A DNA stretch of 64,000 nt from IMG/VR virus record IMGVR_UViG_3300028833_000099; one strand, given 5' to 3'. The translations under genes were made by a program, and so were the position numbers. The notes beneath the pieces were generated by a model that was given only the letters and a program-made list of their open reading frames with translations, had not been told where the DNA came from and did not search any database. Below, one piece after another: positions 10,891 through 55,940 of the stretch (position 1 is its first letter; the number at the start of each line of letters is the position of its first letter). Source of the DNA: a virus. Lineage: Duplodnaviria; Heunggongvirae; Uroviricota; Caudoviricetes.

Positions 10891-11466
10891 CTCTTTACGA
10901 TGAATAATAATATATCTTTCAATTTTTTTATCAAAATCAAGCCCACAAAATATGGATTTTAAAACATCGGTTTTATTGTATGACCTTAACAAAAAATGTT
11001 TTGCGGTTTTGAGCGCATGTTTTAACGCAACTTCTTCAGAAGAAAAATATTTATTCTCATGGATGCCGTGTATTTCTGCTGTCAGTATAGTATATTTTTT
11101 ATTAGCCCAAGTTACCATATGTCTATCAAAACGGTCAAACAATCGATAATAGTATGCAAAGGAATCATCATCCTCAGAATAAGCAACATAGGTTTCTATT
11201 TTAATTCTAAAACGATAAAAAAGTAAATCCTTGAGTTTTAGAATTTTAAGTCTAACTGCCGATGGTAAATTAAAGAAATGTTGTACATATGTGCTAAATG
11301 GTAATGTTTTAGGCTTATAATGATTTCTTATTGGCTCGTATATTATTGCCCCACCACTACTCGGTAGAGGAATCATTGGATAGTAGCATCCGCTCTTAAA
11401 ATTATCAATATTGCATACGCACATACAAGGTCTTGTCCTTAATACTGTTTCTTTAACTTCTTTCAT
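10876..11466 (-). CDS. hypothetical protein
   Basis: 196-aa ORF. Confidence 0.45.
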   Translation of the reverse strand: MKEVKETVLRTRPCMCVCNIDNFKSGCYYPMIPLPSSGGAIIYEPIRNHYKPKTLPFSTYVQHFFNLPSAVRLKILKLKDLLFYRFRIKIETYVAYSEDDDSFAYYYRLFDRFDRHMVTWANKKYTILTAEIHGIHENKYFSSEEVALKHALKTAKHFLLRSYNKTDVLKSIFCGLDFDKKIERYIIIHRKELKFD

Positions 11467-11959
11467 TTTGTAAACGCTCCCTTACCTCATCTAATGCTTT
11501 TCCAAGAAGATTAGTACCTTTCCAGTTATTCTCGTCATCAATCATAGGGTTATTTTCCCCTAGACCAACGCCCCAAATTTTATCTATCGGACTAGCTTCA
11601 ACAAAGTGTTTTCCATTAAATTCGTCAGAAAGTATGTTACTTTTCAACTCTTCGTTTGATGAAAATTTAAGATAGCAAGCATCAACCATTACTTGATAAC
11701 GTTTTTCATTCCAAACATTATCATCATAATTTCTTACTTTGCGTCCAAGTGTTTTTGCAGTTTTGGGGTTTTTGCCCTCAAAGGCAATTTTCATGGCAAT
11801 TTCTTCATCACCAAACGTTTTAGCCTTTACAAACATAAAATACTGTTCTGAATTGTAGAAAGTATATTTTTTACCTTCATATTCAGCGTTAAAGGTACAA
11901 GGATACCAATTTGAAGGCCATTCGCCCCAGAAAAATATATGTTTATCAGTTATTCTCAT
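11453..11959 (-). CDS. NADAR-domain protein (YbiA-like, NAD/ADP-ribose metabolism)
   Basis: FFWGEW..SNW, YNSEQYFMFVKAK and KIWGVGL match conserved NADAR/DUF1768 blocks. Confidence 0.7.
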   Translation of the reverse strand: MRITDKHIFFWGEWPSNWYPCTFNAEYEGKKYTFYNSEQYFMFVKAKTFGDEEIAMKIAFEGKNPKTAKTLGRKVRNYDDNVWNEKRYQVMVDACYLKFSSNEELKSNILSDEFNGKHFVEASPIDKIWGVGLGENNPMIDDENNWKGTNLLGKALDEVRERLQNERS

Positions 11960-11961
11960 AG

Positions 11962-12351
11962 TTATTCTGTTAAATTATCTATTAACATTTTATTACGCCT
12001 ATTAAAAGTGTAACTTTGCTCTCTCAGTTTAAGCATAAAAACTAAAAGTTCAGTGGGTTTCATTTTTTCAATAGCCCCACTCTCTTTTAGCAAAAAAAAA
12101 TTGTCTTCAAAGGGCAGAAATCCTTTGATTCCAGCATCACAATACATATGGGTTGAAATTATTACTCCGTTTTCAGTAACTTTGAAATTTTCAAAACTAC
12201 CCCACTTGACTATTTTGTTATTAGATGTTATTTTAAAAAAATCCCCATCTTTAAACGATTTCAGTATTTTTATTTTTTTTGCGTGTAATATTTCATACTG
12301 TTTTATTAATTCTTCTTCAGTCATAGTAATTGGTTTTTTATAAATTAGCAC
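11962..12351 (-). CDS. hypothetical protein
   Basis: 129-aa ORF. Confidence 0.4.
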   Translation of the reverse strand: MLIYKKPITMTEEELIKQYEILHAKKIKILKSFKDGDFFKITSNNKIVKWGSFENFKVTENGVIISTHMYCDAGIKGFLPFEDNFFLLKESGAIEKMKPTELLVFMLKLREQSYTFNRRNKMLIDNLTE

Positions 12352-12483
12352 CGTGATTAATTGGAATACCTTTCAACCTATAATACTCAAGCATAATTTT
12401 ATGATATGCTTTACATTCTTTAGGAACTTTGCTGTATAAGTCTTCTAATTCTTTATCAGATAAAATGATTAAATTTCTCATAT

Positions 12484-12540
12484 ATTCGTTTTGGCAAATA
12501 TATAAAAAAAACGTGGAATAGCAAAATATCCCACGTTAAT
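12484..12540 (-). promoter_or_regulatory. terminator hairpin + promoter module
   Basis: Hairpin AACGTGGGATATTTTGCTATTCCACGTT, T-run, then TATATATTTGCC. Confidence 0.6.
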
Positions 12541-12552
12541 CTATGTTAATGT

Positions 12553-13776: not shown

Positions 13777-13856
13777 ATATTTTTTCTTTTAAAATTTTTA
13801 AATTTGTAATCATATTTTCTTTTTTAATATTGGAGAAATACAATAATTTTATTTTT

Positions 13857-14291
13857 TTATTTTATTTTTTTTAATATTATATTATTTGTTTCGTTTTTCC
13901 TAAGAGGAAATTGTTTTACTAGTTTCAACCCTTCTTGAGCTATGACCACACCATGTTTAAACCTATCTTGAATGTAGCAGAGTATAGATTTGTCTCGTTC
14001 ATGTTCAGCAATTTTTATTATCTTGAAAAGTTGTTTATCACCTTCTTGTCTTCTTTTTTCTGTTTTTTTGAAACTACCAGGAGAATAATATGGGAAATCG
14101 CTGCTATTCGTAAAATAACGGAATGCTTCAATATATCTAGGATAAACATCCCCCCAATCTCTAACACGAACAATATCACCAATCCTAAAAGGCAAACAAT
14201 CTCTACCCCCACTAGCTTTGTAGTAAATAAACACTTCTTTAGCTCTAGGGTTTGAACGTTTCACTGATTGTATCTGTGTTAATTGGCTCAT
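13857..14291 (-). CDS. hypothetical protein (tandem paralog A)
   Basis: Shares MSQLTQIQ, RIGDIVRVRDWG, EGDKQLFKIIKIAEHE and GVVIAQEGLKLVKQFPLRKNET with the neighbouring ORF. Confidence 0.5.
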   Translation of the reverse strand: MSQLTQIQSVKRSNPRAKEVFIYYKASGGRDCLPFRIGDIVRVRDWGDVYPRYIEAFRYFTNSSDFPYYSPGSFKKTEKRRQEGDKQLFKIIKIAEHERDKSILCYIQDRFKHGVVIAQEGLKLVKQFPLRKNETNNIILKKIK

Positions 14292-14821
14292 AGCCCTGTT
14301 TCATTTATTTTTTTTAATACTATGTTAATTGTTTCATTTTTCCTAAGAGGAAACTGCTTTACTAGTTTTAACCCTTCTGGAGCTATGACCACGCCACGTT
14401 TAAGCCTATCTTGAATATAGCAAACTATATCTCCACTCATAAGCTCATGCTCTGCAATATTTATTATCTTGAAAAGTTGTTTATCACCTTCTTGTTCTCT
14501 TTTATAAAAAGAATAATATGGGGTTTCCCTACTTCCTGTTAGAAAAACGAATGCTTTTGTGTAAGAAGAGTAACAGTAACCCCAATCTGTAACACGAACA
14601 ATATCGCCAACTCTAAATGGAAAATATTTTGTTCTTCCATAAGAGGTTTGATACATAAAAACTTGTTCAATATTCGAGTCTAGGTGACGTTGTTGCGCTT
14701 GTATCTGTGTTAATTGGCTCATAGTCTCTTTCCTCTGTTTCTTCAACGTTACCGTATGGGTAACTCCTAGAGTTATTATAATATGGGTTATACCTATCAG
14801 TTTGGTTTTTTGATAGTTCAC
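14288..14821 (-). CDS. hypothetical protein (tandem paralog B)
   Basis: Paralog of 13857..14291 with an N-terminal extension. Confidence 0.5.
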   Translation of the reverse strand: MNYQKTKLIGITHIIITLGVTHTVTLKKQRKETMSQLTQIQAQQRHLDSNIEQVFMYQTSYGRTKYFPFRVGDIVRVTDWGYCYSSYTKAFVFLTGSRETPYYSFYKREQEGDKQLFKIINIAEHELMSGDIVCYIQDRLKRGVVIAPEGLKLVKQFPLRKNETINIVLKKINETGL

Positions 14822-14908
14822 CCATAAAATAGCATCCCTCTACGCAGCCACCCATTAGGCATAACAAAAGCAATGTTCTGATAATACCTCTAAATAAATC
14901 TCTAGCCA

Positions 14909-15820
14909 TCACTCTACCTTAATGTTTTCGATATTTTCGTGATACCATGTATTAAACTCTTCAAACTCTTCGTCTGAAAACTCCTTACGCACGGTATCGT
15001 ACTCAATATAATCGCAATATTTGACTTTTACGATGATTCTTTTACCGCTTCCATCGCAAAGTGGAATCACTGGACGAGCAACAATACCCTCCTCAATCAT
15101 AGTTGGGTCAGCAGCACCCTCAAACTGAGTTGTGAAACCACCCCTAACCTTATCTTCGATTTCCTTGAGTGTCATTATACCCAAGAAAGGAACAGTGCCT
15201 AGTCCAAGACCCTTACACAATGAGTCTCTTACATCCTTTGGTGTCCACCAACCTTGCTGTCTGATGTCAAACACACGGAATGCATTACCATTCTTAATGT
15301 AACGAGAACCGCACTTCTGAATACCAGTACCAAAATACTCTCCGTAGATATAAACTGGAACCTCTTCAAGTTCCACGCTGTAGAAACCTTTTGAGGGTGG
15401 CGTATCAATGATTGCATCTTTTCCAAGCTCTAGAGTATAGTACTGCACCTTGTTTGTCTCCTTATTTTTTACTGGAGTAAATCTAGCACTCTCTTTAGGG
15501 AACATTGCGCAAAGTTGTGGCTTGATACGCTCACCAATCTCTTGCAGCATTTCGAACTGCCCATGCTGAGAGCTTGATTTCTCGTTTTTACCTTCAATGC
15601 GAATCTCTTGGGTAGATGGGAAAAACGCAATTTTGCTACAAGTTCCATCAATCTTGCTATATGCCTCCCAAGTACAATTGAAAAGGTAACTAGCCTCAAT
15701 GTTTGAAAACTCGCCCAAGATTATTTTATTCTTGAACTTAAGCCACTTCTTATTTGGGCATTTAGACCCATCAAAAATATACCTTTTATACAAGGTGTTT
15801 ATTTTAGTGTATGCTTCCAT
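14909..15820 (-). CDS. Rnl2-family ATP-dependent RNA ligase
   Basis: Nucleotidyltransferase motif I SKIDGT, motif YGEYFGTGIQK...FRVFDI and EGIVARP are collinear with T4 Rnl2 (from memory). Confidence 0.7.
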   Translation of the reverse strand: MEAYTKINTLYKRYIFDGSKCPNKKWLKFKNKIILGEFSNIEASYLFNCTWEAYSKIDGTCSKIAFFPSTQEIRIEGKNEKSSSQHGQFEMLQEIGERIKPQLCAMFPKESARFTPVKNKETNKVQYYTLELGKDAIIDTPPSKGFYSVELEEVPVYIYGEYFGTGIQKCGSRYIKNGNAFRVFDIRQQGWWTPKDVRDSLCKGLGLGTVPFLGIMTLKEIEDKVRGGFTTQFEGAADPTMIEEGIVARPVIPLCDGSGKRIIVKVKYCDYIEYDTVRKEFSDEEFEEFNTWYHENIENIKVE

Positions 15821-15837
15821 GCTTTATTATTTTTTAA

Positions 15838-16092
15838 TTATTCTGTTTCTTCTCTCCACAAATTATTTTCCATTTTGTCAGAATTGGAAAATTCTATAAT
15901 TTCGTCAATGTTATCACATTTAATTTTTTTCAGCATATCCAATTCAATTTCTCCATTATTGATGCCTTCAACAAGAGCCAACAATGTTCTATATGGGGTT
16001 AATAAATTTCTAAGATGTGCCCCTAAAGTTTCTGTTGCCATTTTTTTATTAATTAGTAGGACAATGTGGACTCGAACCACAGACCTCCCCAT
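15838..16092 (-). CDS. hypothetical protein
   Basis: 84-aa ORF. Its 5' end overlaps the tRNA-like element at 16059-16140, so the start is uncertain. Confidence 0.3.
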   Translation of the reverse strand: MGRSVVRVHIVLLINKKMATETLGAHLRNLLTPYRTLLALVEGINNGEIELDMLKKIKCDNIDEIIEFSNSDKMENNLWREETE

Positions 16093-16140
16093 ACTAGTGT
16101 TTCCACGTTCTGGTGTACTCTACCAACTGAGCTATCGTCC
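16059..16140 (-). tRNA. tRNA-like gene (82 nt, anticodon arm not resolved by eye)
   Basis: Canonical D-arm (GCTCAGTTGGTAGAG), T-arm (GTGGTTCGAGTCCAC) and a complementary acceptor stem. The central ~33 nt is too long for a type I tRNA. Confidence 0.45.
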
Positions 16141-16401
16141 TTAATGCAATCTTCATGCGGCTAGCGTTTCCTTCTTCCGCACTCATCTAAGTAATTGCTT
16201 GATAACTGACTGTTTTACAATCTCGGTCAAACTAACTCCATTGCAAGCATCAATCTGTTCCGAAGTCGAGACTGTTATATCTTAGCAATGTCGTGTGGCA
16301 GGACTGCCCTCACCACGTCTTTCAGTTACCGTTTTGAAGCTTCATGGTGCAAATGTACGAAATTAAATTGATATATCCAAATTTTTTTATCTTAAAAAAC
16401 G

Positions 16402-17106: not shown

Positions 17107-17266
17107 CTTCTAAATCCATAACAAGACTTTCCAAAATGCCTAATTTCTCTTTATATATTGCTGTTTCCTTTGAAACATCAACTAGAGTTTGTTCCAATGA
17201 CTTAACTTTGCTTTTCAAGTCATTATACTCTTTCATTGGTATCTCTATCCTTGCCATATTACCCAA
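17003..17266 (-). CDS. small coiled-coil protein
   Basis: 87 aa with a heptad-like pattern. It overlaps the neighbouring ORF, so it is doubtful. Confidence 0.3.
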   Translation of the reverse strand: MGNMARIEIPMKEYNDLKSKVKSLEQTLVDVSKETAIYKEKLGILESLVMDLEDEGILNRIFSWKNIISPFKEVFKKDEKKQETKTT

Positions 17267-17834
17267 TATTGACTCTTTCTGAATTATTGATAAAGTTTAT
17301 AACTTTTTCCTCCCCATCTTTTGTTATTGCTGGGCAAAAATCAATAAGAACGTGGAAATTAACATTTGGAAATGCCCTTAAACCATCTTTCAATGAATCA
17401 AAAAGACACACGTCTAAAGCAATGCCAGCCAAATCAATATCAGTTACTTTCATCATTTCACAAATATTACTAAGTAATGCATTAGACTTTTCATTCTTAA
17501 ACACTGAATATTCCTCGTGGTCTTCATCGACCCCTTTAGTCAAGACAATATAGTCACTATTAATAGCGTTCAAAGCATCAATAATTGGCTGATAGATTGC
17601 TGCATCATGCGTATGTTGTACGCAATGTTCAGGCCATACCCCACCGTTTGCCTTGAATGAACAATGTGTATGCGGATGCCAATCTGCTGTTAGAAATATC
17701 TTATCATATGCTGGACCGTTTTCACGTATAAATTCAGCAAGACGATTCATTTTATGGGTTGCACCTTCCACTGGAAGATTACCGCCCTCTAGAAAACCAT
17801 ATTGACAATCTATTAAAATCAAAATTTTATTCAT
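17259..17834 (-). CDS. pncA: nicotinamidase/pyrazinamidase (PncA, isochorismatase family)
   Basis: ILIDCQYGF, TADWHPHTHCSF and GIALDVCL correspond to the catalytic Asp/Lys/Cys blocks of PncA. Confidence 0.8.
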   Translation of the reverse strand: MNKILILIDCQYGFLEGGNLPVEGATHKMNRLAEFIRENGPAYDKIFLTADWHPHTHCSFKANGGVWPEHCVQHTHDAAIYQPIIDALNAINSDYIVLTKGVDEDHEEYSVFKNEKSNALLSNICEMMKVTDIDLAGIALDVCLFDSLKDGLRAFPNVNFHVLIDFCPAITKDGEEKVINFINNSERVNIG

Positions 17835-17846
17835 AATTTATTCTGT

Positions 17847-18362
17847 TTAATTATTATTATTTTCACATGCGACAGCAGCAGTGGTAAGATTTCCAACAAT
17901 TTCTGCTATAGCATCATTTTTAATCTCTGCTTCTTTCTCAGCCTCTTTTGGTTTTTTGACCTCTCTTGACTTTGATGTTTTTTTGGTCTCTTTTGGTTTT
18001 TTGACCTCTCTTGACTTTGGTGCTTTTTTAACTTTAATTGTTTTTGATGTAGTCTTTTTTTGCGTTTCTTGAGTGTTTACAACATCATCAGTAGGCATTT
18101 CCACTGTTTCATTTAATGCCTCTGTATCAATAGTTTTTTCTTCATTATTGATGGTTGTTTTCTTTTCATTTGCTAACTCCTCAAGTTCTTTCATGAATTT
18201 CTCTTTTTCTTGTTTCACCTTATACTCGGTAATATCATATGTAACACAAGAATTATGATATTTTTTTGCAAATAGGGTCATACAAGAATCAGTTTCTGTC
18301 TTAAGACCCTTGCAAGGACAGTTTTTACATAGTGTACCCATAGTTTTTCTTTTTTTATGCAA
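17847..18362 (-). CDS. Cys4 zinc-finger and lysine-rich repeat protein
   Basis: N-terminal CKNCPCK...C, then tandem KKPKE(T/A)KKTSKSREV repeats encoded by DNA direct repeats at ~17930-18060. Confidence 0.5.
   Translation of the reverse strand: MHKKRKTMGTLCKNCPCKGLKTETDSCMTLFAKKYHNSCVTYDITEYKVKQEKEKFMKELEELANEKKTTINNEEKTIDTEALNETVEMPTDDVVNTQETQKKTTSKTIKVKKAPKSREVKKPKETKKTSKSREVKKPKEAEKEAEIKNDAIAEIVGNLTTAAVACENNNN
17930..18060. repeat. tandem direct DNA repeats inside ORF 17847..18362
   Basis: GACCTCTCTTGACTTTG(A/G)TG(T/C)TTTTTT(GG/AA) repeated. They encode the KKPKE.KKTSKSREV repeats. Confidence 0.5.
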
Positions 18363-18464: not shown

Positions 18465-19871
18465 TCATACCGTTAGGCTCTTTAATTTATTTTCAACAAT
18501 CTCAAATGCTTCATCTTTAGTCATATTAGGATTTTCAAAATATGCTTCTTTAACAGCCTCTAAAAGTATTCCAATATTTGGTCCACTTTTTAAATGAAAT
18601 TCCTTCAAAATATCGTCTCCAGAGATAGGAAGTTTAACATTTGCTGCTTTTTCAGCATCTTCCATTTCCTCTATTCTATTGAGAATATCAAGAACTTGCC
18701 GTTTTTTCTTACCAAAGGTGCAATAAAGATTATTGGCGTTCATTAGGTCAGCAGTTGCCCCCAAATCATCACCAGTTAAGTTGATAAATTTTCTAATCTT
18801 CTTATCTGGCGGTAATACGCCATCGGCATAACTTGCAAAACCTCTATGATGCTTAATGGCGGTTTCAACAGATTTGATGATATAATTAGGGTATTTCATG
18901 TCCTTCAAGTCGCTTGCAGCAATTTCTGCACTAAACTTATCTGGCATCACATCCCTACGTTTCTCTGTTATAATTCTACCAACATCATGGAACAAAGCAG
19001 CCAATCTGTTTTCTAAATAAGGCTGAACAGTATCTAGCACGTTCATCGTATGGTCAAATGTGCTAACCATAGGATTCCTTGACTCATAGGCGTAGGTTGT
19101 ATCATAAATATCGGGCATTACTCTATGCAAAATGCCACAGAAATACATTTTCCGAATACCGATGCTTGGTTTTTCACAAAGTAGAATCTTGGATATTTCG
19201 TCACTAATTCTTTCTTGCGATATAATTTTAATGCGGTGTGCATTTTTAATCATCCCTAACCAAGTGTTTTTTTCAATATCCCAACCGAATCTAGTTGAAA
19301 AACGAATTACACGTAAGATTCTCAATGGGTCATCATTGAACGTAACATCTGGGTCAGTTGGAGTCTTTATTACTTGATTTACCAAGTCATCTATAGAGCC
19401 GTTAAAATCATGTATTTTCTCTGTGCTGATGTTATAATACAGAGAATTGATAGTAAGGTCACGCCTTTTTGCATCCTCTTCAAGGCTTCCGAATACAGTT
19501 TCTGGGTTTCTGCTTTCCTTGTGGTACTGTTCCTTTCTAGTTTGGACGCATTCAATCTCTATATCTTTAAATTCATCGTTCTTGAACAATTGGAACTTCG
19601 CAGTTCCATAGTTTTCAAACACTACTGGATTAGTATTATGAATAAAACATTGGTGTTTTATTGCCATATATACAGCAAACAGCATTCCACCGTTTTTCAT
19701 TTCAACAACGATGTCAATGTCTTTAATGGGTAATCCTAACAATGCATCACGCACACAGCCACCAACCAAATATACTTTTCCTTCAAAATGAGTGTTTTTG
19801 ATTGACGCTTGTATGAGGTCAATTAGGTGTTTGATTCTATCATCAACTTTTTTAAATAATAGTTCGTTCAT
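18465..19871 (-). CDS. cca: tRNA nucleotidyltransferase (CCA-adding enzyme) with HD domain
   Basis: Pol-beta nucleotidyltransferase signature GGCVRDALLG...DIDIV plus an HD motif LFHDVGR. Confidence 0.85.
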   Translation of the reverse strand: MNELLFKKVDDRIKHLIDLIQASIKNTHFEGKVYLVGGCVRDALLGLPIKDIDIVVEMKNGGMLFAVYMAIKHQCFIHNTNPVVFENYGTAKFQLFKNDEFKDIEIECVQTRKEQYHKESRNPETVFGSLEEDAKRRDLTINSLYYNISTEKIHDFNGSIDDLVNQVIKTPTDPDVTFNDDPLRILRVIRFSTRFGWDIEKNTWLGMIKNAHRIKIISQERISDEISKILLCEKPSIGIRKMYFCGILHRVMPDIYDTTYAYESRNPMVSTFDHTMNVLDTVQPYLENRLAALFHDVGRIITEKRRDVMPDKFSAEIAASDLKDMKYPNYIIKSVETAIKHHRGFASYADGVLPPDKKIRKFINLTGDDLGATADLMNANNLYCTFGKKKRQVLDILNRIEEMEDAEKAANVKLPISGDDILKEFHLKSGPNIGILLEAVKEAYFENPNMTKDEAFEIVENKLKSLTV

Positions 19872-19872: not shown

Positions 19873-20829
19873 TTATTTTATTAATTCTAACGGATACATA
19901 AATTTAGCCAATTCGTGGTCATAGTAGAAAACTAAATCTGATGGCGTTATTTCCATCCCATTGAGTAGTTTATACACTTGTGGGTAATAAGTGTCAGGAA
20001 CGCAATGTAAAGTGTGTTTCCTGCCATTTAAATAATCTTCTTTAATATATGCCGTGACAATTCTGTCAGAAACTCCACGTTTGAAGTCTTGAGACATAAG
20101 TTTAAATTTATTAACTCTAAATCGGAATCCCATAAACTCTTCGTTAGTAACAGCAAGTTTTTTAAATTCCTCTTCTGTACCCAAGAACTTGAGAATAATT
20201 TCATCAGTCTTGATAGAGTAGAGTTTCATTTTATCATCAAATCTTTCGGCAAGTTTCTTTGCAAACTTATTAGATATTAATTTCTCAATGGCAGATGTCC
20301 TTTTACCGTTAAGTTTACCAAACAGCATTTGTCTAAGTTGTTTTGCGTGTTTGAAATACTCTATGTCAGTGAATTTCTCGATAAACTCTTCATAGGTATC
20401 ACAATCCTTTACAATTGCTGGGTCTGCATAATTTAATGCTTGGAAGTTTGCCTTAATCATGTCATAAGACACAAAAAAACAATTACACTGTTCCTTCGTA
20501 TAAAGCTCTGGAGAACCTACAATTGGTGTCTCTGAAGCTATCTCACTCTTAGCACCATTAAATGCCTTGTAAGCCTCGGAGTTGAGTATATAGGCTAATA
20601 TTTGGTCTTCTATATTATGCCGATACTCAAGGAATTTCTGCATATTACCGTCAAATTTATCCCTAACAGTTTCTAACAAGGTGAGATATTTTGTTTTTGC
20701 CCCACAATCATCCTCAAGTAGTGTTATATGCTCGTCAAAATAAGGCGATTGAACTACTTGGATAGGCAAATTGAAATCTTTAACAAATTTACTTCTAAAT
20801 TGTTTGAGTAACAGTGTATTTTCAGCCAT
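19873..20829 (-). CDS. hypothetical protein
   Basis: 318-aa ORF. Confidence 0.45.
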   Translation of the reverse strand: MAENTLLLKQFRSKFVKDFNLPIQVVQSPYFDEHITLLEDDCGAKTKYLTLLETVRDKFDGNMQKFLEYRHNIEDQILAYILNSEAYKAFNGAKSEIASETPIVGSPELYTKEQCNCFFVSYDMIKANFQALNYADPAIVKDCDTYEEFIEKFTDIEYFKHAKQLRQMLFGKLNGKRTSAIEKLISNKFAKKLAERFDDKMKLYSIKTDEIILKFLGTEEEFKKLAVTNEEFMGFRFRVNKFKLMSQDFKRGVSDRIVTAYIKEDYLNGRKHTLHCVPDTYYPQVYKLLNGMEITPSDLVFYYDHELAKFMYPLELIK

Positions 20830-20850: not shown

Positions 20851-20905
20851 AATGCAAATATATGAAAAAAACGTGAGACTGCAAAATTATCTCACGTTTT
20901 TTAAT
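20851..20905 (-). promoter_or_regulatory. terminator hairpin + promoter module
   Basis: Hairpin ACGTGAGATAATTTTGCAGTCTCACGT, T-run, then CATATATTTGCAT. Confidence 0.6.
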
Positions 20906-23233: not shown

Positions 23234-25294
23234 TTATGCTTTTGTAAGCTCTAATTCTAATTCCTCTTCTTCTGCTAAAGCACCTACTTTCTCAGTAGTA
23301 TACTTTCCGAATATTGAGTCAGTTGGCTTTATGTATTCGTCCAAGTTAATACCGAATTCTTTTGCCAAACTTTTATCCTCTTTTCTTATTTTCAAATCTG
23401 GTCGTTGTCCAAGAACTTTAAGTGCCTCAAGGTTGTTGTTTCTGATACAATTACCAACTGCTGTGCAATCAAAATCGTTAACAACGTTTACATCAACGTT
23501 TTTATTGGAAACTAGCTCTTTTACAATCCATACCTCATTTGTGTACTCACAAGCAGTATTAAGAGCGCAATCGTTATTGATGTCTTTTGCTGCAAGATTA
23601 AAGTTTTTACTAGAAAGGATTGACTTAATCATATTAGTCAATATCTTGTTATCCTCTTCTGAACTTGCAACCTCATCACTTCCATGCAAATAGATTAATG
23701 ACTGAAGCAAAGTTTCGCCAAAACCATCCTCAATTTGTGAGTTGAATCCATCACAATTAACAATAGTGTCAAAAAGTTTGAACATTTTGTTAGTTATTGC
23801 TGAGAAAACAGGGATTCTCTGGTTAAATTCGTAGTTAACATTAATATTACCACGTTCTTTCTCAATCAACTTGATAGCCCCAATCTCATCGTTCTCATCA
23901 ATGAGTTTGTGAAGAAGGATTGATGGGTCAATTGCCTCACGATTTAGATACTTATCCGTAGAAATACCAATTTTTGATAAATATCCTTCTTTTGAAATTT
24001 CAGCACCAAAAATGTCATACATCACAGACAAAGACAATGTGCCATACATATCCTTGCGATATTGCATTGCAATAAGTGACCTTTCATTGTTTATTGGGAG
24101 GTTAAAATCCATAAACAAATAGGTTTTGTTGTTATTGTCAATGGAGTTGAAATTGTTGGTTTTGATGAAAGTCTTTTTAACAAAATCATTGAACACTCTA
24201 GAGTTAAGGACATTTATAATCAAACGTCCATCACCCTCATATGCAATAGCAAATGATTCTGGAGATTTTTTGACCATTGCTATCATATCGGTAATGTTCC
24301 AAGAGAATCCTAGTTCTTTAGGCAAACGCATGAAAGTGCTCATTTTAATGCCGAAATTATCGAACACATTATAAATACTTAGATTTTCGTTGCCTTGTCT
24401 ATAAGGATTAATCATTGAATAGTTATGGCAAGTTTGTGCTTCAACAATGCCAGTTCCACCCTCAACAGTAAAACCAATGTGTGCAAATGCATCACTTTCT
24501 TTTCTGCTAAAGTCGAACAAGAAATACTGACTACGATTCGCCTTACTTGTTACATAACTCTTGAAATACGACTCTTCACGAGCGATACACCAACCAGTAC
24601 GTCCATTACCGCATAGTTTATGACTAGATTGGAACGATGGAACATAAACAACTACACAAGGACCTTCGTTGAAAACCACTTCGCAGTCTTTTGCATTGTG
24701 TTCTATATAAGCAAGAAGGTCTTCTTTACCCTCTTTCCAATCATAAGTTCTATTGAGGCAATCTAGAATTGCTTGATGGAGTGATGCAGCGTTTTTAAGA
24801 GCAGAACTACTGCTGTAGAACTTGTTCTTAATATTCATAGGTTTTTTATTGAACGTCTTGAAAACATCATACCATTTCTTAATGTTTGCATTCTCATACG
24901 CCTCAATTGGAGTATATTCCTTACCCAAAATAGATTCAGTCAGAATCTTTTTCTGCTCTGTATTGAAATGAGAGATAATATTCTTAACAAAAGCAATACG
25001 CTCAAGACCCTTAATCTCTTTAAGTAATTGGGCAACTCCACTTTTATTAGAGTATGATACAACATTCTTCTTTTCGAGCTTGTTAATCATGTTACTGTTG
25101 GTAGTAATCCAAGTGTGAATGGTTTCCAACTCTTCAAAGGTCATTGACTGAGAGAATATCATTCTAACAGCCCAAATCTGGTAATTTGACTGACCATCGA
25201 ACATTTCACATACTTTAATAAATAATTTGTTAGTCTCTGGATTGATGCCATACTTATCAATCAAAGGCTGCATCTGTTTTTTATTATAAGTCAT
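23234..25294 (-). CDS. large hypothetical protein (paralog 1) with C-terminal ankyrin-like repeats
   Basis: Start trimmed to MTYNKK (ATG at 25292-25294), downstream of the promoter at ~25328-25345. Shares DKYG(I/L)NP, WAV, NT.QKK, TxWCI and Q(Y)(F/M)(L/I)FDFS blocks with ORF 25630..28110. Confidence 0.55.
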   Translation of the reverse strand: MTYNKKQMQPLIDKYGINPETNKLFIKVCEMFDGQSNYQIWAVRMIFSQSMTFEELETIHTWITTNSNMINKLEKKNVVSYSNKSGVAQLLKEIKGLERIAFVKNIISHFNTEQKKILTESILGKEYTPIEAYENANIKKWYDVFKTFNKKPMNIKNKFYSSSSALKNAASLHQAILDCLNRTYDWKEGKEDLLAYIEHNAKDCEVVFNEGPCVVVYVPSFQSSHKLCGNGRTGWCIAREESYFKSYVTSKANRSQYFLFDFSRKESDAFAHIGFTVEGGTGIVEAQTCHNYSMINPYRQGNENLSIYNVFDNFGIKMSTFMRLPKELGFSWNITDMIAMVKKSPESFAIAYEGDGRLIINVLNSRVFNDFVKKTFIKTNNFNSIDNNNKTYLFMDFNLPINNERSLIAMQYRKDMYGTLSLSVMYDIFGAEISKEGYLSKIGISTDKYLNREAIDPSILLHKLIDENDEIGAIKLIEKERGNINVNYEFNQRIPVFSAITNKMFKLFDTIVNCDGFNSQIEDGFGETLLQSLIYLHGSDEVASSEEDNKILTNMIKSILSSKNFNLAAKDINNDCALNTACEYTNEVWIVKELVSNKNVDVNVVNDFDCTAVGNCIRNNNLEALKVLGQRPDLKIRKEDKSLAKEFGINLDEYIKPTDSIFGKYTTEKVGALAEEEELELELTKA

Positions 25295-25387
25295 GTTTAA
25301 TAAAAGAATTAAATTTGTTTTTTCCGTTTGTTTGTGCAAATATATAATAATTTTTCTACTCTACAAAATTTTTTATGTTAATAAAAA

Positions 25388-30237: not shown

Positions 30238-30756
30238 TTAATCGTTCTTCTTTAAAACATGGAAGCAGAACTGAGTTCCATTACCTTGCAACATTGATTT
30301 GTAATAGGTTCGCCATTCCTTTTCATCAAACTCTGGAAAAAATGTATCTCCATCATCATCATCTTCCACAATAGTTAACCTTAACTCGTTGACAAGGTTT
30401 CTCTCCATAAACTGACGGTATATCTCACCACCACCGATTACGAATAGTTCCTTATCAGAGAAAAAAGCGTTACACAATTCGATAACGTCATCAATTGAGT
30501 TTACAATGTATACGTTATCGTATTCACCACTTACTCCAAAATCTCTAGAAGTCGTAAGAATAATGTTTATCCTATCTTTCAGAGGCACACCATTGGGAAG
30601 GGATTCGAAAGTTTTTCTACCCATAATGACAACTCCATTATGTTTAGTCATCCTAGCAAAATTATTAATATCGTTATCTATCCGATACAATAATTTACCA
30701 TTTTTTCCAATTACTTGTTTTCGATTCATACAAGCAATAATAATAAATTTAAGCAT
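30238..30756 (-). CDS. folA: dihydrofolate reductase
   Basis: IIACMNRKQVIGKNGKLLYRI, VIMGRKTFESLP and FVIGGGEIY are classic DHFR blocks. The start was chosen at MLKFIIIACMN to avoid overlap with the upstream gene. Confidence 0.85.
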   Translation of the reverse strand: MLKFIIIACMNRKQVIGKNGKLLYRIDNDINNFARMTKHNGVVIMGRKTFESLPNGVPLKDRINIILTTSRDFGVSGEYDNVYIVNSIDDVIELCNAFFSDKELFVIGGGEIYRQFMERNLVNELRLTIVEDDDDGDTFFPEFDEKEWRTYYKSMLQGNGTQFCFHVLKKND

Positions 30757-31684
30757 ATATAATATTATTTTGGTTATAAATGTTTTTATAAATTCTATCA
30801 CTAAAAATATTGTATTTTTTTACTATTGATTCCCTAATATAATATTTTAATTTAATTCCGTGTGCTTCACAAATTTCTTTTTTTCTTAAGTCTCTTTCTA
30901 TTTCGTTTTCTAAAGAACTTGTAAAAAAACTAGATTCAATAAAATGCTGTATTCCTTGACACTCGATAGCCACATTTTCTTTATCCAAATAAAAATCCAC
31001 ACTTTGATTACCAAGAATACCGCCAATATTACTATACCTTTCATTAGAAATACCCATTCCGTTTAGAATCAATAGTATTTCATTTTCTAACGTACTATTT
31101 TTACAATCTGGACACCCTTGACCTCTTAAATGTGCTGAAGGTATCTGCCAAAATTCGCCATGCTCTGGACATATTATGCACACTTTTGTCTCATTATTTA
31201 TATATTCTACTTTAGAATAGTCATACTTATCACCATGAACTTTTTTAGCATCATTAATAAAGGCATCTAATTTTTTTTTCAATTTATTTGCTGCATTTTT
31301 TCTACCGCAAATTGGACATCCTTGACCTTGAAGATGATTTATAGGCTGCTGCATAAATTCTCCATGTATAGGGCATCCTATTTTAACTTTAGTATGATTA
31401 GTTACATATTCTACTTTAGAATAGTTATATTTATCACCATGAATTTGTTTCGCCTCGTTAATAAATTGCTCTGTAGTTTTGCGATAAATTTTAGACCTTT
31501 CTTCAATTCCACATTTTTTACAGCCATGACCTTGAAGATGGTCGTTTGGTCTTATAAAAAATTCCCCGTGTTTTGGGCATATTATACAAACTTTTTTATC
31601 ATTTCTCTCATATGCAACTTTCGAATAATCATATTTATCTCCGTGTATTTTTTTGGCTTTTACTATAAAATTTTCACTATTCAT
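30749..31684 (-). CDS. homing-endonuclease-like protein with three zinc-ribbon repeats
   Basis: Three tandem repeats of K.HGDKYDYSKVEY...CP.HGEF...HL.G.GC..C, followed by a C-terminal domain that may be a nuclease fold. Confidence 0.45.
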   Translation of the reverse strand: MNSENFIVKAKKIHGDKYDYSKVAYERNDKKVCIICPKHGEFFIRPNDHLQGHGCKKCGIEERSKIYRKTTEQFINEAKQIHGDKYNYSKVEYVTNHTKVKIGCPIHGEFMQQPINHLQGQGCPICGRKNAANKLKKKLDAFINDAKKVHGDKYDYSKVEYINNETKVCIICPEHGEFWQIPSAHLRGQGCPDCKNSTLENEILLILNGMGISNERYSNIGGILGNQSVDFYLDKENVAIECQGIQHFIESSFFTSSLENEIERDLRKKEICEAHGIKLKYYIRESIVKKYNIFSDRIYKNIYNQNNIIYA

Positions 31685-48744: not shown

Positions 48745-48800
48745 ATGCAAAGGTACGAAAAAAAGCTGAACTAGCCAAATAATCAGTTCAACTTTAACAA
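48745..48800 (-). promoter_or_regulatory. terminator hairpin + promoter module
   Basis: GCAAAGGTACGAAAAAAAGCTGAACTAGCCAAATAATCAGTTCAAC. A near-identical module lies at 49422-49478. Confidence 0.55.
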
Positions 48801-49385: not shown

Positions 49386-49689
49386 AAAAAAATATTTTTA
49401 TTACTATTTTAATTTATAGTGCAAAGGTACGAAAAAAAGTCGAACTAACCAAATAATTAGTCCAACTTTAACAATCTTTAACTTTACACTTGTTTTGCGC
49501 CTTGTTTATCTTAGGTCAATAATATAGAATAGGTTTACCTATACCAACCATAAAGGTATCCTCTTATCCATCAAGGAACTAGGGTAAGGGGCTAATCCTC
49601 GCACCGCATTACTGCTTCACCTACCATTTCTTACGTGGTTTGTGCTGTCTTACCTATTTCAGTACTTCACTTGAGTACACCAGCCGTAG

Positions 49690-49780
49690 TGAGCATAGTA
49701 GGATTCGAACCCACGATGAACTTTCTCAAGCCCATAACGGTTTTAGGGACCGCCACAATCGACCACTCTGCCATATGCCC
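49690..49780 (-). tRNA. type II tRNA with anticodon loop CCCTAAA (CUA), a candidate amber suppressor
   Basis: Acceptor GGGCATA/TATGCTC, Leu/Ser-like D-arm TGGCAGAGTGGTCGA, anticodon stem GCGGT/ACCGT, ~20-nt variable arm and T-arm GTGGGTTCGAATCCTAC. Confidence 0.5.
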
Positions 49781-49789
49781 AGTTAAATA

Positions 49790-52046: not shown

Positions 52047-52192
52047 ATGTTAATTGTTTAAGTGGAGTATTGGAGATTCGAACTCCAAGAGGTCTTATGT
52101 TTCCCGCCTCTCGTATGGTCTTCTTATGCATGAAACCGACCAGCAGGTCACCACCCAACGTGTTTATACCCCATGAGAATTACTTATTGCAG

Positions 52193-52310
52193 GGACTGAC
52201 GGATTCGAACCGCCATCGTTTATTAACAGTTAAAGGCACACTCTGTTCCGAGGTCGAGAGTGCTTTATTCCTTAAAGCGCAACAAATTACTTTACCATTA
52301 AGCTAAATCC
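52193..52310 (-). ncRNA. elongated tRNA-like RNA (Ser-GGA-like anticodon hairpin)
   Basis: Complementary termini AGGGATT/AGTCCCT, D-arm-like GCTTAATGGTAAAGT, hairpin GCTTT-AAGGAAT-AAAGC, a long hairpin CACTCT...AGAGTG and T-arm GGCGGTTCGAATCCGTC. At ~118 nt it exceeds any tRNA. Confidence 0.3.
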
Positions 52311-53377
52311 CTATATAAATACAAAAGACTGAGAATGTTGTCTTATTGTTAATGCCATTTTACAAGCGTTGGAACTTGCTATTCACACGTCACCTTACGA
52401 TGAACGTAGACATCATGCACGGAAGTCTTGAGAAGACAACCAAGAATCTTACTAGTTTAAACCTTGCGGTGCAGCATCATAGCTTTCAGTTCTTCGCCAA
52501 GCTCTTGCGGATTCATAGGATGCCTCCTATTAACTCAGACGAGTACTTTTACACGCTCATTGAATTCCTTGCGAGTCCTCAATGTCTCAATATTTCATGA
52601 GAATAAGTGCATTTTAGCTGCCTAGTGTCGCACACTTTTGCTTAAATTGATTTTTGAATCATATTTATGTTCCGTAGGCGGTTTGGAAGACGAGGTGCGA
52701 CTAAGGACATCTGTAACTTTTGGCTACAGCCCATCCAATCGCCTCCCTGTGCTAGCTCACCACAAGCTATTCACTATTATACACCATCACCTCATATGAG
52801 TTCTTACACATTTCTATGTAAGACTAGTGCATAACTGAGTACAACACGCCAACTGGTGATTATTGCATCATACTCCATACAGTAATCTATCGTGTCACCA
52901 CTCATTCAAAGATTCCTCACCCTTGAAAATATACAACTTTGGTGTTACCCACATTGTATACCGTACTGTATGCTTTTCAGTGAAATACATGAGAGTTTCT
53001 CATATATCTGCAACGTTTACCGCTAGTACACGTCACATTTATCCCATCACTGGATTATCCTTCCATCTGGCTACGAAAGCTAGCCATTAGCCTCATATCT
53101 TTCGCAAGATATTTCCTCATGGAAATTGGCTTATTTCTTGAGTTTTTCATTCGTTTTCAGTTTATTATAATAGGTAAACTGCTTCCTCTTTAGAGGTGGG
53201 TTCATATCCCAAGCTCCTATTTTTTAGCCCTACATCGAATTTTTTTACCCAATACTTACTTTTTTCTAGTACACGTTCTCTAGAATATGGTTCCCGAAGT
53301 TACCATTGCTATGGATTGTTTAACCACATAAAACCCATTTTTACCGTTGTCTACGGCACGAAAAGGCATATCTCGTT

Positions 53378-53530
53378 GGTTAGAGCAGATTTGCACTGCT
53401 GAAGCTTCCGAAGAAACACATCAAGCACGAACTTGATGCCCATTTGTCTACATCGTCATTGCTGACGTTCTCCTCTGGTACTAACCAAAAGGTGGTTTTT
53501 TGACTTGTCCACCACAAGGTATAGTGTGTA
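53378..53530. repeat. ~150-bp structured element, copy 1
   Basis: Copy 1 (~53378-53530) and copy 2 (~53683-53835) are ~90% identical direct repeats. Compensatory changes preserve two helices: AGCAG...CTGCT versus GCTAG...CTAGC, and TTGGTTAG...CTAACCAA versus TTGGTAGA...TCTACCAA. Confidence 0.6.
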
Positions 53531-53682
53531 GTATTGTAAAGGCTAATTCATTTTGCAGAACTAATTTAATGGTAAAGGACATCTGCTATGTTTCATACAG
53601 TTGTGTGTTTGTCGCAACCTCACTTTCCTCGCCAACCTTTACTGCCGATTGCACCTGAGCGTTTATACTACATTTGTTGGTA

Positions 53683-53835
53683 GAGCTAGATTTGCACTAG
53701 CGAAGACTCCGAAGAGCCACATCAAGCACGAACTTGATGCCCATTTGTCTACATCGTCATTGCTGACGTTCTCCTCTGGTATCTACCAAAAGGTGGTTTT
53801 TTAACTTGCCCACCACAAGAATAGTTGCGGCAGTA
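53683..53835. repeat. ~150-bp structured element, copy 2
   Basis: Second copy of the element at 53378-53530. It carries paired substitutions that maintain the helices. Confidence 0.6.
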
Positions 53836-53899
53836 GGAGTCGAACCCACTGTTACTAGGTTATGAGCCTAGTGTGTAAACCGTTTCACTCTGCCACGAT
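53825..53899 (-). tRNA. tRNA (CAU)
   Basis: Anticodon stem CTAGG/CCTAG with loop CTCATAA and T-arm GTGGGTTCGACTCCTAC. The acceptor has a position 1-72 mismatch. Confidence 0.45.
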
Positions 53900-54040
53900 A
53901 TTATGTATTTAAATCGGAAACTTTTTCTAAACGTTTCAAAGTGACAATTTGATGTTAAGAATAGTTTGCTGTGAGTTTCCTTTATTGTTTTCAAATCAAC
54001 AATGCAAAGATATGAAAAATATTTTTAATATCCAAATTTT

Positions 54041-54310
54041 TTAAGATTTCTTTGCATTTTTGGCGAAATACTCTTTGAGTTTAGCCCATTCTGAAAGGAT
54101 GGTACTATATTCATCGGCACTAAGTAATACTTCCTCTTTGCCATGCTCAATACTATCTGCTTGCCCCCTAAGTTTATCAACTAAATTGATTTTAAGAGCC
54201 TCATAATATTTTACGCTAACAATATTAGTAGCTTCTCCTTTGCTATACCCAGCCTCTTGAAGGTTTTTATATAGTTCACTTCTGAAATCTTTATCTAAAA
54301 TTTTACTCAT
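54041..54310 (-). CDS. hypothetical protein
   Basis: 89-aa ORF downstream of the promoter at ~54338-54380. Confidence 0.4.
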   Translation of the reverse strand: MSKILDKDFRSELYKNLQEAGYSKGEATNIVSVKYYEALKINLVDKLRGQADSIEHGKEEVLLSADEYSTILSEWAKLKEYFAKNAKKS

Positions 54311-54390
54311 TGTATGTCTTTTTCTTTAACAGTGCAAAAATATACAAAATTTTTGAAAGTTCCAAATTTTAAGCGATTTTTTTAAAGATT

Positions 54391-54651
54391 TTAACATCTT
54401 CCTTCATATAAATCATCATAATTGGTTTTACCTCTTTTGAATATTGTAATATTTTTTGCGTCTTGGAAAAGACACCAACCAATTGTTGACAAACATATTC
54501 CCACGATAACGCCAATGCTTAACCATGACAATAAACCACATACAAATGCAGCAATCAAATCAGCAAGAGTTACGACTCTAAATTTTGGGCATCTAACAGC
54601 TAGTGTTAGAAAAAACGCAACAATGCATCCAATAAAATAAATACTTCCCAT
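54391..54651 (-). CDS. small membrane protein
   Basis: 86 aa with three hydrophobic helices. Confidence 0.4.
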   Translation of the reverse strand: MGSIYFIGCIVAFFLTLAVRCPKFRVVTLADLIAAFVCGLLSWLSIGVIVGICLSTIGWCLFQDAKNITIFKRGKTNYDDLYEGRC

Positions 54652-55165
54652 AACTAAATTGTTTTTTTACTTTAAAAATAATCAGCTACACGAACCTCTT
54701 CAATGTACTTATGAAAGATTCCCTTCCATACATGTTATACAGATTAACGCATGACTTATATCCTAATATAGCCTAACTTTACTGTAAAAGTTTACTTCAT
54801 CATCCAACCCTGACTGATTATTTAGTGGACTTGCGCAGAGTCGAACTGCGGTCCAAACAACCATTCCATAAGAAATTATACAAGCTTTGATTTGGAAAGT
54901 TGACAGCAAACGCTGCCCTCACCGCTACCTTATTTTGCGAAAACAAGGAAAACTATACAAAGATGACTAAAGAATAATGCTAGGGTGTTCTGTTCCTAAG
55001 AGCCTAGCCTCTCGGCTTACATTACGCAGCTATAGCGTACTCGTAAGCAGGAGAATCAACATTCTCGCCAGTTATATTTTTTTGCTATTGAAGTGTATGC
55101 CCACTGCTTGTTTCTTACCAAATGCATTGCTGTCAAATCCATTACAAGCCCATGATAAAAAATTG

Positions 55166-55239
55166 TCGAGAGGGTAGGACTTGAACCTACGACCTTCATC
55201 TTATCAGGATGACAATCTAACCAACTGATATACCCCTCG
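55166..55239 (-). tRNA. tRNA-Ile (GAU), copy 1
   Basis: Acceptor CGAGGGG/CCTCTCG, anticodon stem TCATC/GATGA with loop CTGATAA, T-arm GTAGGTTCAAGTCCTAC. Confidence 0.65.
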
Positions 55240-55379
55240 ATAAGCTAGTTTGTGGAATTCCGATTCTTCACCACACAAGTTTCACTAGACCTCCTAATGT
55301 TATATGCGTCCGTTATAGGATACCAACGTTATACGCTTGCCAATTTATTTATCGTACTGCGGAACTAGCTATATTCCTA

Positions 55380-55940
55380 TTACACGTCTTTAAATGCTTC
55401 AATAAAATGTTTCAAAATCATTGCATTTTCTATGACGCAAGTCGGAACTGCTTCTCTAAGGCTTTCAACATCCTCTTTCAAAATCATTTCTCTTACTTTC
55501 GTAGCAGAAAGACTATTATGGATAGTTCCTCTTGCATTAAGTTTGAATGATACGAAATCTCTCGTAATGAAAGGTGGAAACCACTGCATAATTATCTCAA
55601 AACCATCAGAGTAATATATTGTAAACTCTGGAGATTTTGTAAACCCAACAATGTGGCTATAGAGATAAAAACCCCAATCATGAGAATTGTCCGATTCATC
55701 TGTAAGGTCTGCTAATGGTTGTATTATAACCCTTTTAGAGTCCTCTTTAAATGCCTCTTCTATCGCCTTATTAGCGAGTTCCAATCTCATGGCAATTGGT
55801 ATTGGATTCCTTTTATTGAGTTTATCAGCAGAACCAACGAGCAGAAGAACATTTTCATTCTCGTTTAGTGCTTGCCGTATTAACTCAAGATGCCCTTTAT
55901 GTATGGGCTGTATTCTTGCAATGATAACACCTACTGCCAT
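55380..55940 (-). CDS. nadM: nicotinamide/nicotinate mononucleotide adenylyltransferase (NadM-type)
   Basis: N-terminal ARIQPIHKGHLELIRQA carries the (H/T)xGH nucleotidyltransferase motif, very close to archaeal/bacterial NadM GRFQPFHKGH. 186 aa. Confidence 0.75.
   Translation of the reverse strand: MAVGVIIARIQPIHKGHLELIRQALNENENVLLLVGSADKLNKRNPIPIAMRLELANKAIEEAFKEDSKRVIIQPLADLTDESDNSHDWGFYLYSHIVGFTKSPEFTIYYSDGFEIIMQWFPPFITRDFVSFKLNARGTIHNSLSATKVREMILKEDVESLREAVPTCVIENAMILKHFIEAFKDV

Follow-up and report, generated by a model that had tools for sequence, protein, structure and literature searches.

Predicted Preiss-Handler-type route from nicotinamide to NAD+ encoded by a jumbo phage of gut and rumen metagenomes

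Background

Depletion of nicotinamide adenine dinucleotide (NAD+) is a widespread anti-phage strategy, and three phage routes that restore it have been validated: NARP1 (Adps and Namat) and NARP2 (Nampt and Nmnat) (bioRxiv 10.1101/2024.02.11.579819), and NARP3 (PnuC and NadR; PMC13464706). None of the three is deamidated, that is, none proceeds via nicotinate. On the other hand, Li et al. (Microbiome 2024) reported complete salvage or Preiss-Handler pathways in 174 of 668 animal-gut jumbo phages, made up of pncB, nadD and nadE, with mention of pncA, described a Bacteroidota-infecting clade and proposed a role in counter-defence (PMC11662467). Phage NadV, NadM and NadR, and the gene neighbourhoods of NADAR and Nudix, had been surveyed earlier by Iyer et al. 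(PMC9503650). Here we analyze the NAD genes of a 64,000-nt stretch of phage DNA, IMG/VR record IMGVR_UViG_3300028833_000099 (the window), together with near-identical contigs that extend beyond it, and propose that this phage encodes a four-step deamidating route from nicotinamide to NAD+.

Results

The initial annotation of the window had named seven scattered genes of NAD metabolism, encoding PncA, PncB, a NadM-type adenylyltransferase, a CinA/PncC-like deamidase of nicotinamide mononucleotide (NMN), a Nudix hydrolase, a NADAR protein and a HIT hydrolase. The seven open reading frames (ORFs) proved to lie exactly where it had placed them, all on the minus strand, and in profile searches each of the claimed domains scored above its Pfam gathering score. 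The set that belongs to NAD metabolism is smaller, however: PncA, PncB, the NadM-like protein and, by context, the Nudix hydrolase are kept in it, whereas the CinA-like, HIT and NADAR proteins are not. Since the phage carries genes of the PncA, PncB, NadD and NadE families, the last two beyond the window, all four steps from nicotinamide to NAD+, by way of nicotinate, nicotinate mononucleotide (NaMN) and nicotinate adenine dinucleotide (NaAD), appear to be encoded. The genes are spread over about 86 kb:

17259..17834, minus strand: putative PncA-type nicotinamidase (nicotinamide to nicotinate), 191 aa, PF00857
12553..13776, minus strand: predicted PncB nicotinate phosphoribosyltransferase (nicotinate and phosphoribosyl pyrophosphate, PRPP, to NaMN), 407 aa, TIGR01514
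L055:11255-11890, about 0.6-1.2 kb beyond window position 1: putative NadD-type nicotinate-nucleotide adenylyltransferase, 211 aa
L088:4847-5758, about 19.5-20.4 kb beyond window position 64000, same strand: predicted NadE NAD synthetase, 303 aa, PF02540

The PncA ORF matched Isochorismatase (PF00857) with 32.9 bits against a cutoff of 27, and its best matches in the PDB were all nicotinamidases (top match 1ILW, E=9.5e-20). When aligned to Pyrococcus horikoshii PncA (1ILW) it was found to keep the Asp-Lys-Cys triad as well as the Asp/His/His metal site (DWHP..H / WPEHC), and the protein is best read as a divergent nicotinamidase PncA. The assignment of PncB, made by sequence comparison, is solid. 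The ORF passed the TIGR01514 equivalog with 333.7 bits (cutoff 269.55), both of its domains were detected (NAPRTase, PF04095, 148.6 bits; NAPRTase_N, PF17767, 106.7 bits) and its best PDB match was 2IM5 (E=9.1e-70). It is the sole NAPRTase-family gene found in the window.

An identical PncB protein was found on 11 metagenomic contigs, the longest of which is 407,876 bp (ENA ERZ12302815 NODE_9); on this contig, window position 1 corresponds to position 10,658 of the L055 coordinates used here. The same phage is present in IMG/VR as a 295 kb contig, together with several relatives of 409-413 kb, and the contigs that carry NadD and NadE are 98.3-99.9% identical to the window. The window is thus part of a jumbo phage of about 408-412 kb from gut and rumen metagenomes. 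Its size, given by the longest contig and by the relatives, exceeds the 200 kb of the NAD-jumbo phages, and with NadD and NadE taken from the near-identical contigs its pncB, nadD and nadE make up the complete Preiss-Handler set of that group.

The NadD-type protein gave 18 listed PDB matches, 17 of which were NadD (best 1KAM, E=1.3e-14). A Peptidase_M42/M20 gene and a YqeY-domain gene lie beyond NadD and the PARG-like gene described below. The initial annotation had described a nearly complete route as far as NaAD, with NadM as its adenylyltransferase. A route from nicotinamide to NAD+ via nicotinate is indeed encoded, but adenylylation of NaMN would be independent of NadM: because a NadD-type enzyme is encoded 0.6 kb past the window, NadM is unneeded for the route, and it is an extra enzyme rather than the missing link of the pathway.

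NadE had been described as missing from the window, which was borne out: when the remaining 77 minus-strand ORFs of 55 aa or longer were concatenated and compared with Pfam, no further NAD-related families emerged; NadE, NadV, NadR, PnuC, Sir2, macro and ART were all sought there and none was found. It had also been suggested that NadE be sought elsewhere in the genome, and it was found about 19.5 kb past position 64000. A single-sequence probe reached close relatives only, a four-sequence alignment gave two narrow patterns that missed the target contigs, and in a profile search of a 5.8-billion-protein set the contig signature of this phage was in none of the top 120 matches. The gene was located by back-translation of the invariant motif GNIKARLRM, a scan for which matched the same-phage IMG/VR contig and all four of the four relatives of about 410 kb. 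The NadE protein contains the full-length NAD_synthase domain (PF02540, 138.3 bits), shares 47% identity along its whole length with NadE of the related jumbo phage L012 (IMGVR_UViG_3300028887_000066), and has PDB matches to NAD synthetases, mainly NH3-dependent.

The phage-type NadE family gave 6,721 matches at E<=1e-20 in the profile search, and contigs of 360-474 kb carry many of these. In relatives (L130 and L118) NadE is flanked by genes for tyrosyl-tRNA synthetase, a sigma-70-type factor, DnaJ, an AAA ATPase, a formate/nitrite transporter and TelA, a gene load typical of huge phages. No further NAD genes were found in the NadE-flanking regions of the relatives, which hold the tyrosyl-tRNA synthetase, sigma factor, DnaJ, TelA and RtcB genes.

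Conservation of the pathway genes was analyzed in relatives and in deposited phages. The block of CCA-adding enzyme, PncA, RNA ligase, PncB and NADAR genes is syntenic in five relatives, where identity was 67-82% for PncB (the highest in the block), 52-66% for PncA and 60-72% for NADAR. A tblastn search of 50,697 deposited phage records revealed PncB-like proteins in 15 and PncA-like proteins in 8; both were present in 6, against about 0.002 expected if the two occurred independently, and in two of these six (MT835470 and MT839920) the genes are adjacent. In L012, whose PncB is 77% identical to that of the window, the pathway genes form a compact operon:

L012:8114-12858: operon PncA-NadE-PncB-Nudix-NadD

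PncA, PncB and NadE are likewise clustered in L061 and in L063-L065, NadD being close by in the case of L063, and NadE-Nudix-NadD occurs in L062.

Two further proteins of the window were assigned to NAD metabolism:

55380..55940, minus strand: standalone NadM/archaeal-type NMN adenylyltransferase (NMNAT)-like protein, 186 aa, PF01467
33965..34549, minus strand: Nudix hydrolase, candidate ADP-ribose or dinucleotide pyrophosphatase, 194 aa, PF00293

The NadM-like protein matched CTP_transf_like (PF01467) with 31.9 bits against 21, and TIGR01527 with 48 bits against a cutoff of 181. The motifs RxQPxHxGH (IHKGH) and SxTxxR (SATKVR) are legible. An AlphaFold2 model built on 20 homologs had a pLDDT of 87, and its top Foldseek matches were Methanothermobacter thermautotrophicus NMNAT 4YP6 (E=2.6e-9) and NadM 2QJO (TMq 0.76), with PPAT close behind. 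By sequence and model, the protein is probably an NMNAT. Homologs were found at 37 IMG/VR loci, and one that is 53% identical occurs in the cultured Bacteroides phage BS-TP1 (PQ571274.1, gp96), where it is annotated only as 'cytidyltransferase'. The family is widespread in human-gut phages (L036 and L049 are further examples); in BS-TP1 and related gut phages the homolog adjoins RtcB, ParA-like and radical-SAM genes, and the 14.6 kb inspected around it contained no NAD genes. In L033 the homolog adjoins an NAD-dependent DNA ligase.

The Nudix hydrolase scored 49.6 bits with PF00293 against 21.1 and has an intact Nudix box; its PDB and NCBIfam matches were generic. It is homologous along its whole length to the Nudix protein of the L012 operon (30% identity, E=2e-23), and in L062 a Nudix gene of this type separates NadE from NadD. 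A proline about 16 residues past the Nudix box, common to the L012 homolog, is weakly indicative of an ADP-ribose pyrophosphatase. Since its homolog sits in the operon PncA-NadE-PncB-Nudix-NadD, the Nudix hydrolase is probably accessory to the NAD pathway.

The three other proteins that the initial annotation had counted as NAD genes, and a PARG-like protein encoded beyond the window, are as follows:

11453..11959, minus strand: NADAR (YbiA-type) protein, predicted ADP-ribose N-glycohydrolase, PF08719, TIGR02464
L055:13237-14088, 2.6-3.4 kb beyond window position 1: PARG-like macrodomain protein, TIGR02452 (158.9 bits), PF10021
47317..47817, minus strand: CinA-domain protein with degenerate active site, PF02464
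46949..47317, minus strand: HIT (Hint/Fhit-type) nucleotide hydrolase, PF01230, translationally coupled to the CinA-like gene

The NADAR protein scored 154.5 bits with PF08719 against 35.1 and 147.6 with TIGR02464 against 73.7, and it matched the solved NADAR structure 8BAU at 102 bits; in relatives its gene lies 0.6-2.7 kb downstream of PncB. Proteins of the NADAR family strip ADP-ribose from DNA bases, and orphan phage NADARs neutralise DarTG1 (PMC11543638, PMC11125620, PMC11825919). Its description as a salvage enzyme was therefore given up: by family membership and by analogy with these phage proteins, NADAR would be better explained as part of NAD/ADP-ribose conflict, in counter-defence, than as part of NAD synthesis.

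The CinA-like protein matched PF02464 with 82.9 bits against 23.5 and the TIGR00199 PncC_domain with 61.6 bits, under the cutoff of 68.9. It reads EHCTSG where the canonical sequence is ESCTGG, and residues S31, Y58 and K63 in the numbering of Agrobacterium tumefaciens CinA (AtCinA) are replaced by His, Val and Met, respectively. The AtCinA mutants S31A, Y58A, K63A and R145A are all inactive (PMC5384747). After an exhaustive search for relatives, 25 were aligned. The phage-type clade varies freely at the catalytic sites (H/Q/C/A/S, V/F/N/P and M/A/L/Q, respectively), whereas canonical members keep all three residues; the phosphate-binding arginine (R140, corresponding to AtCinA Arg145) is kept, with at least 90% conservation. 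The protein evolves fast: its identity in relatives is 39-75%, compared with 71-89% in the adjoining HIT protein. Since residues essential in AtCinA are replaced, the NMN deamidase activity that had been proposed is very unlikely. The protein may be a pseudo-enzyme or a ligand binder; less likely, as the catalytic residues are lost but the phosphate-binding arginine is kept, it might bind or sponge an immune signal derived from nicotinamide nucleotides or ADP-ribose.

The HIT protein scored 87.2 bits with PF01230 against 21.5 and has an intact HxHxHxx motif (HCHIHII); its PDB matches were generic (HIT, Hint, Ap4A phosphorylase and Fhit). It is paired with the CinA-like protein at the loci L016, L017, L019, L053 and L054 and occurs without it at L018, L025 and L027. 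NCBIfam, PDB and gene context gave no specific link to NAD metabolism, only the link to the CinA-like gene, so that its listing as an NAD gene was not upheld. Both the CinA-like and the HIT protein are probably outside the NAD pathway.

The window was scanned for the promoter consensus TTTG, 17-23 nt, TAnnTTTG, which we take to be of the Bacteroides type. The scan revealed 30 sites against 5.0 +/- 2.4 expected, an about six-fold enrichment; 27 of the 30 are on the coding strand, nearly all in intergenic gaps. Four of them precede genes described above, operon membership being inferred from gene spacing:

20855..20885, minus strand: Bacteroidota-type promoter, putative head of the operon 19873-20829 / CCA-adding enzyme / 17847-18362 / PncA
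16350..16381, minus strand: Bacteroidota-type promoter, putative head of the operon 15838-16092 / RNA ligase / two paralogs / PncB
12495..12525, minus strand: Bacteroidota-type promoter, upstream of small ORFs and NADAR
48748..48779, minus strand: Bacteroidota-type promoter, putative head of the operon holding the CinA-like and HIT genes

The enrichment implies transcription by the host RNA polymerase and a host among the Bacteroidota. The phage host is probably a member of this phylum, since the promoter pattern is enriched and a NadM homolog occurs in the cultured Bacteroides phage BS-TP1.

Genes of the tRNA- or RNA-repair type are interspersed with PncA and PncB, with which they apparently share operons. 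These genes and the neighbours of NadE are:

18465-19871: CCA-adding enzyme
14909-15820: PF09414 RNA ligase
3449-4327: metallophosphatase
L088:2642-4006: RtcB RNA ligase
L088:1835-2278: SSB
L088:311-1612: TelA-like protein

RNA-repair genes amid PncA and PncB, together with RtcB adjoining NadE, hint that NAD supply may be linked to RNA repair. Two tandem paralogous ORFs without functional assignment (13857-14291 and 14288-14821) lie between the RNA ligase and PncB; they share an MSQLTQIQ stretch and their C-terminal half, and are kept in relatives.

The window as a whole has 33% G+C, and its genes are all on one strand. About 80% of its ORFs are without a Pfam match, and PHROG matches are present; a CCA-adding enzyme, an RNA ligase, a DnaB-like ATPase and an HNH endonuclease are also encoded. 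A megablast search with 8 kb of the window found no DNA-level match among deposited phages. Rfam revealed 22 tRNAs and a transfer-messenger RNA (tmRNA) at 6001-6073, 16057-16141 and 36892-63646, and nothing else in the window, so that no NAD+ riboswitch was found. The tmRNA is at 54823-55151, with the tag peptide GENVDSPAYEYAIAA. The tRNA match at 52190-52312 is unusually long (123 nt), and a tRNA with a CTA anticodon at 49689-49780 resembles an amber suppressor. This tRNA prompted us to consider TAG as a sense codon; the standard code was retained because reading TAG as sense gained little in ORF length.

Two large adjoining ORFs (23234-25339 and 25630-28110; 701 and 826 aa) have a central segment in common, seen by eye, which reads, for example, WCI..... 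Y...YV.....QY.IFDFS. The 701-aa protein has C-terminal ankyrin repeats, and no other domains were found in either protein. A dihydrofolate reductase gene (30238-30801) starts within the 3' end of an HNH/homing-type endonuclease gene (30749-31684), whose product has an N-terminal repeat in triplicate. A 132-nt direct repeat is present in two copies (53387-53518 and 53688-53819) that are 91% identical and 301 nt apart, in a gene-poor stretch adjoining a tRNA-Met; predicted RNA structure of the repeat at 53.4-53.8 kb was not significant (z = -1.3).

Discussion

Taken together, the gene families make it likely that this phage encodes a complete four-step deamidating route of the Preiss-Handler type, which would form NAD+ from nicotinamide and keep it available during infection. 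PncA would deamidate nicotinamide to nicotinate, PncB would join nicotinate with PRPP to give NaMN, NadD would convert NaMN and adenosine triphosphate (ATP) to NaAD, and NadE would amidate NaAD to NAD+. The host RNA polymerase would transcribe the genes, starting at Bacteroidota-type promoters, in operons that also hold tRNA-repair genes. The standalone NadM-like protein may re-adenylylate NMN, for example that released as a by-product of an NAD-dependent ligase, and the Nudix protein may hydrolyse ADP-ribose or a dinucleotide, returning ribose-5-phosphate and adenosine monophosphate to the pathway. The net effect would be that NAD+ is kept up in infection, also when host NADase defences yield ADP-ribose and nicotinamide. 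NADAR and the PARG-like protein would act as a separate arm, removing ADP-ribose adducts.

Several points weigh against this proposal. All the enzyme activities are predicted from sequence or fold, and the anti-defence role is one that we infer from them. The best NCBIfam match of PncA, PRK11609 nicotinamidase, scored 61.7 bits, under the cutoff of 174, as befits a divergent member; NadD scored 110.8 bits with the TIGR00482 equivalog, marginally below the cutoff of 112.45; and the best NCBIfam match of the NadM-like protein, PRK01153 NMNAT, scored 56.7 bits, under the cutoff of 127. NadD and NadE were read on the near-identical contigs, outside the window itself. The NAD genes are dispersed rather than gathered in one operon, so that their co-regulation is only a possibility. 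About 100 kb of the genome of about 408 kb was read in this analysis, and NadV, NadR, PnuC or Adps/Namat genes elsewhere in it may alter the picture. Bacteroidota generally encode NadD and NadE themselves, and in many cases PncA and PncB as well; the benefit of phage copies is therefore not self-evident. To our knowledge, neither an NADase defence system nor a matching host is known for this phage.

The same pathway could simply supply NAD+ to NAD+-consuming enzymes of the phage, such as the NAD-dependent ligase, RNA repair and ADP-ribosylation, with no specific role against NADases. Li et al. propose that NAD+ is redirected to replication and repair (PMC11662467), and in agreement with this the putative operons hold PncA and PncB together with the CCA-adding enzyme and the RNA ligase, NadE adjoins RtcB, and the NadM homolog of L033 adjoins an NAD-dependent ligase. 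On the other hand, the entry substrate nicotinamide is a product of NADase defence, NARP1, NARP2 and NARP3 are all counter-defences, and genes of the counter-ADP-ribosylation type (NADAR and PARG-like) lie in the same region. We regard a pure supply function as possible but somewhat doubtful, and the two purposes are not mutually exclusive. A similarly tentative standing is given to the stronger proposal that the dispersed PncA-PncB-NadD-NadE set with the Nudix hydrolase constitutes a fourth class of phage NAD+ reconstitution system, one that is deamidating and defeats Thoeris, DSR and SIR2-type defences in Bacteroidota.

The order of steps could also differ, as in Francisella, where NadE* amidates NaMN to NMN and NadM then forms NAD+. 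Such an order would explain a NadM-type enzyme in a window in which Nampt/NadV was not found. In sequenced phages, according to Iyer et al. (PMC9503650), NadM always accompanied NadV, and the PDB matches of the phage NadE include NadE* of F. tularensis (3FIU, 70 bits). We consider it unlikely, because a NadD-type enzyme is also encoded and NadD-like genes lie within the NadE operons of L012, L062 and L063; moreover, 3FIU is not the best match, and sequence alone cannot tell NadE from NadE*. It is less probable still that the genes are functionally unlinked acquisitions, with PncA a generic hydrolase of the isochorismatase family, the NadM-like protein acting on another substrate, perhaps linked to RNA repair, and the Nudix, HIT and CinA genes serving in housekeeping. 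The scattering of the genes, the scores of PncA and NadM under curated cutoffs, PPAT as a close structural second and the lack of NAD genes in the 14.6 kb inspected around BS-TP1-type NadM homologs would fit that view, but PncA keeps nicotinamidase-specific residues, the adjacency of PncA and PncB (with NadE, Nudix and NadD in some cases) recurs in several lineages, and all four steps are kept in relatives, with a co-occurrence far above chance. That the window is a bacterial or mis-binned cellular fragment with ordinary host salvage genes is hardly credible. PncB is closest to cellular PncB structures and the promoters are of host type, but some four-fifths of the ORFs are Pfam-less, the genes are on one strand with 22 tRNAs, a tmRNA and PHROG matches, the sequence is found in IMG/VR viral contigs of 295-412 kb, and cellular core genes are absent.

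The four-step deamidating route that we propose would be of interest because this phage group has a complete and conserved gene set for nicotinamide to nicotinate, NaMN, NaAD and NAD+. The family is abundant, since related NadE genes number in the thousands, on contigs as long as about 470 kb, and its hosts are most likely Bacteroidota, a dominant gut phylum. With NadD and NadE included, the mapped gene set could be synthesised for testing the Preiss-Handler route as a counter-defence, and the compact operons of L012 and L061-L065 are ready-made cassettes for such experiments. The gene set also helps to correct over-annotation of CinA, HIT and NADAR genes.

Comparison with known systems

The initial annotation had presented the combination of PncA, PncB, NadM and PncC as different from the Nampt/Nmnat and Adps/Namat pairs described so far. 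It does differ from the experimentally validated NARP1-3, but Preiss-Handler gut NAD-jumbo phages were already reported by Li et al. in 2024 (PMC11662467), and the phage therefore represents no new category. What is added here is a full pathway map with NadD and NadE, the downgrading of the CinA-like and HIT assignments, the reassignment of NADAR and the linking of the Nudix hydrolase by context.

Like NARP2 (Osterman et al.) and the NadV/NatV system of Vibrio phage KVP40, the proposed route starts at nicotinamide, uses PRPP and ATP, leads to NAD+ and is accompanied by an NMNAT-type enzyme. NARP2, however, is a two-step amidated route via NMN, whereas four deamidated steps via nicotinate, NaMN and NaAD are predicted here, and the search of the window found no Nampt/NadV. 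NARP1 shares the goal of NAD+ reconstitution, and its Namat belongs to the broad PncB phosphoribosyltransferase superfamily; it differs in that the PncB of this phage passes the NAPRTase equivalog and resembles cellular PncB, ADP-ribose would not be a direct substrate, and the PRPS-like Adps was not found in the window. NARP3 is likewise a phage-encoded means of NAD+ restoration (PMC13464706), but it imports nicotinamide riboside, and neither PnuC nor NadR is in the window.

The standalone NADAR-domain protein resembles AdfN, the orphan phage NADAR that acts against DarTG1 (PMC11825919). It differs in being of the YbiA type (TIGR02464, nearest 8BAU) rather than of the T4 gp30.3 type, with an activity that is predicted. 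The bacterial Preiss-Handler pathway and pyridine nucleotide cycle (PncA, PncB, NadD, NadE and PncC) have the same families and the same predicted order of reactions; in contrast, the present set is borne by a virus, its PncC-like member is without the catalytic residues, and it includes an extra archaeal/NadM-type NMNAT.

The closest likeness is to the NAD-jumbo phages (PMC11662467), which also exceed 200 kb, come from animal guts, have predicted Bacteroidota hosts and carry a complete Preiss-Handler set, often with nadM. A counter to NAD+ depletion has been proposed for them as well, and both they and the phage described here are known in silico only. In place of a clustered 'BGC' (biosynthetic gene cluster) such as that of Kuafu_71, the genes of this phage are distributed over about 86 kb, with tRNA-repair genes in between.

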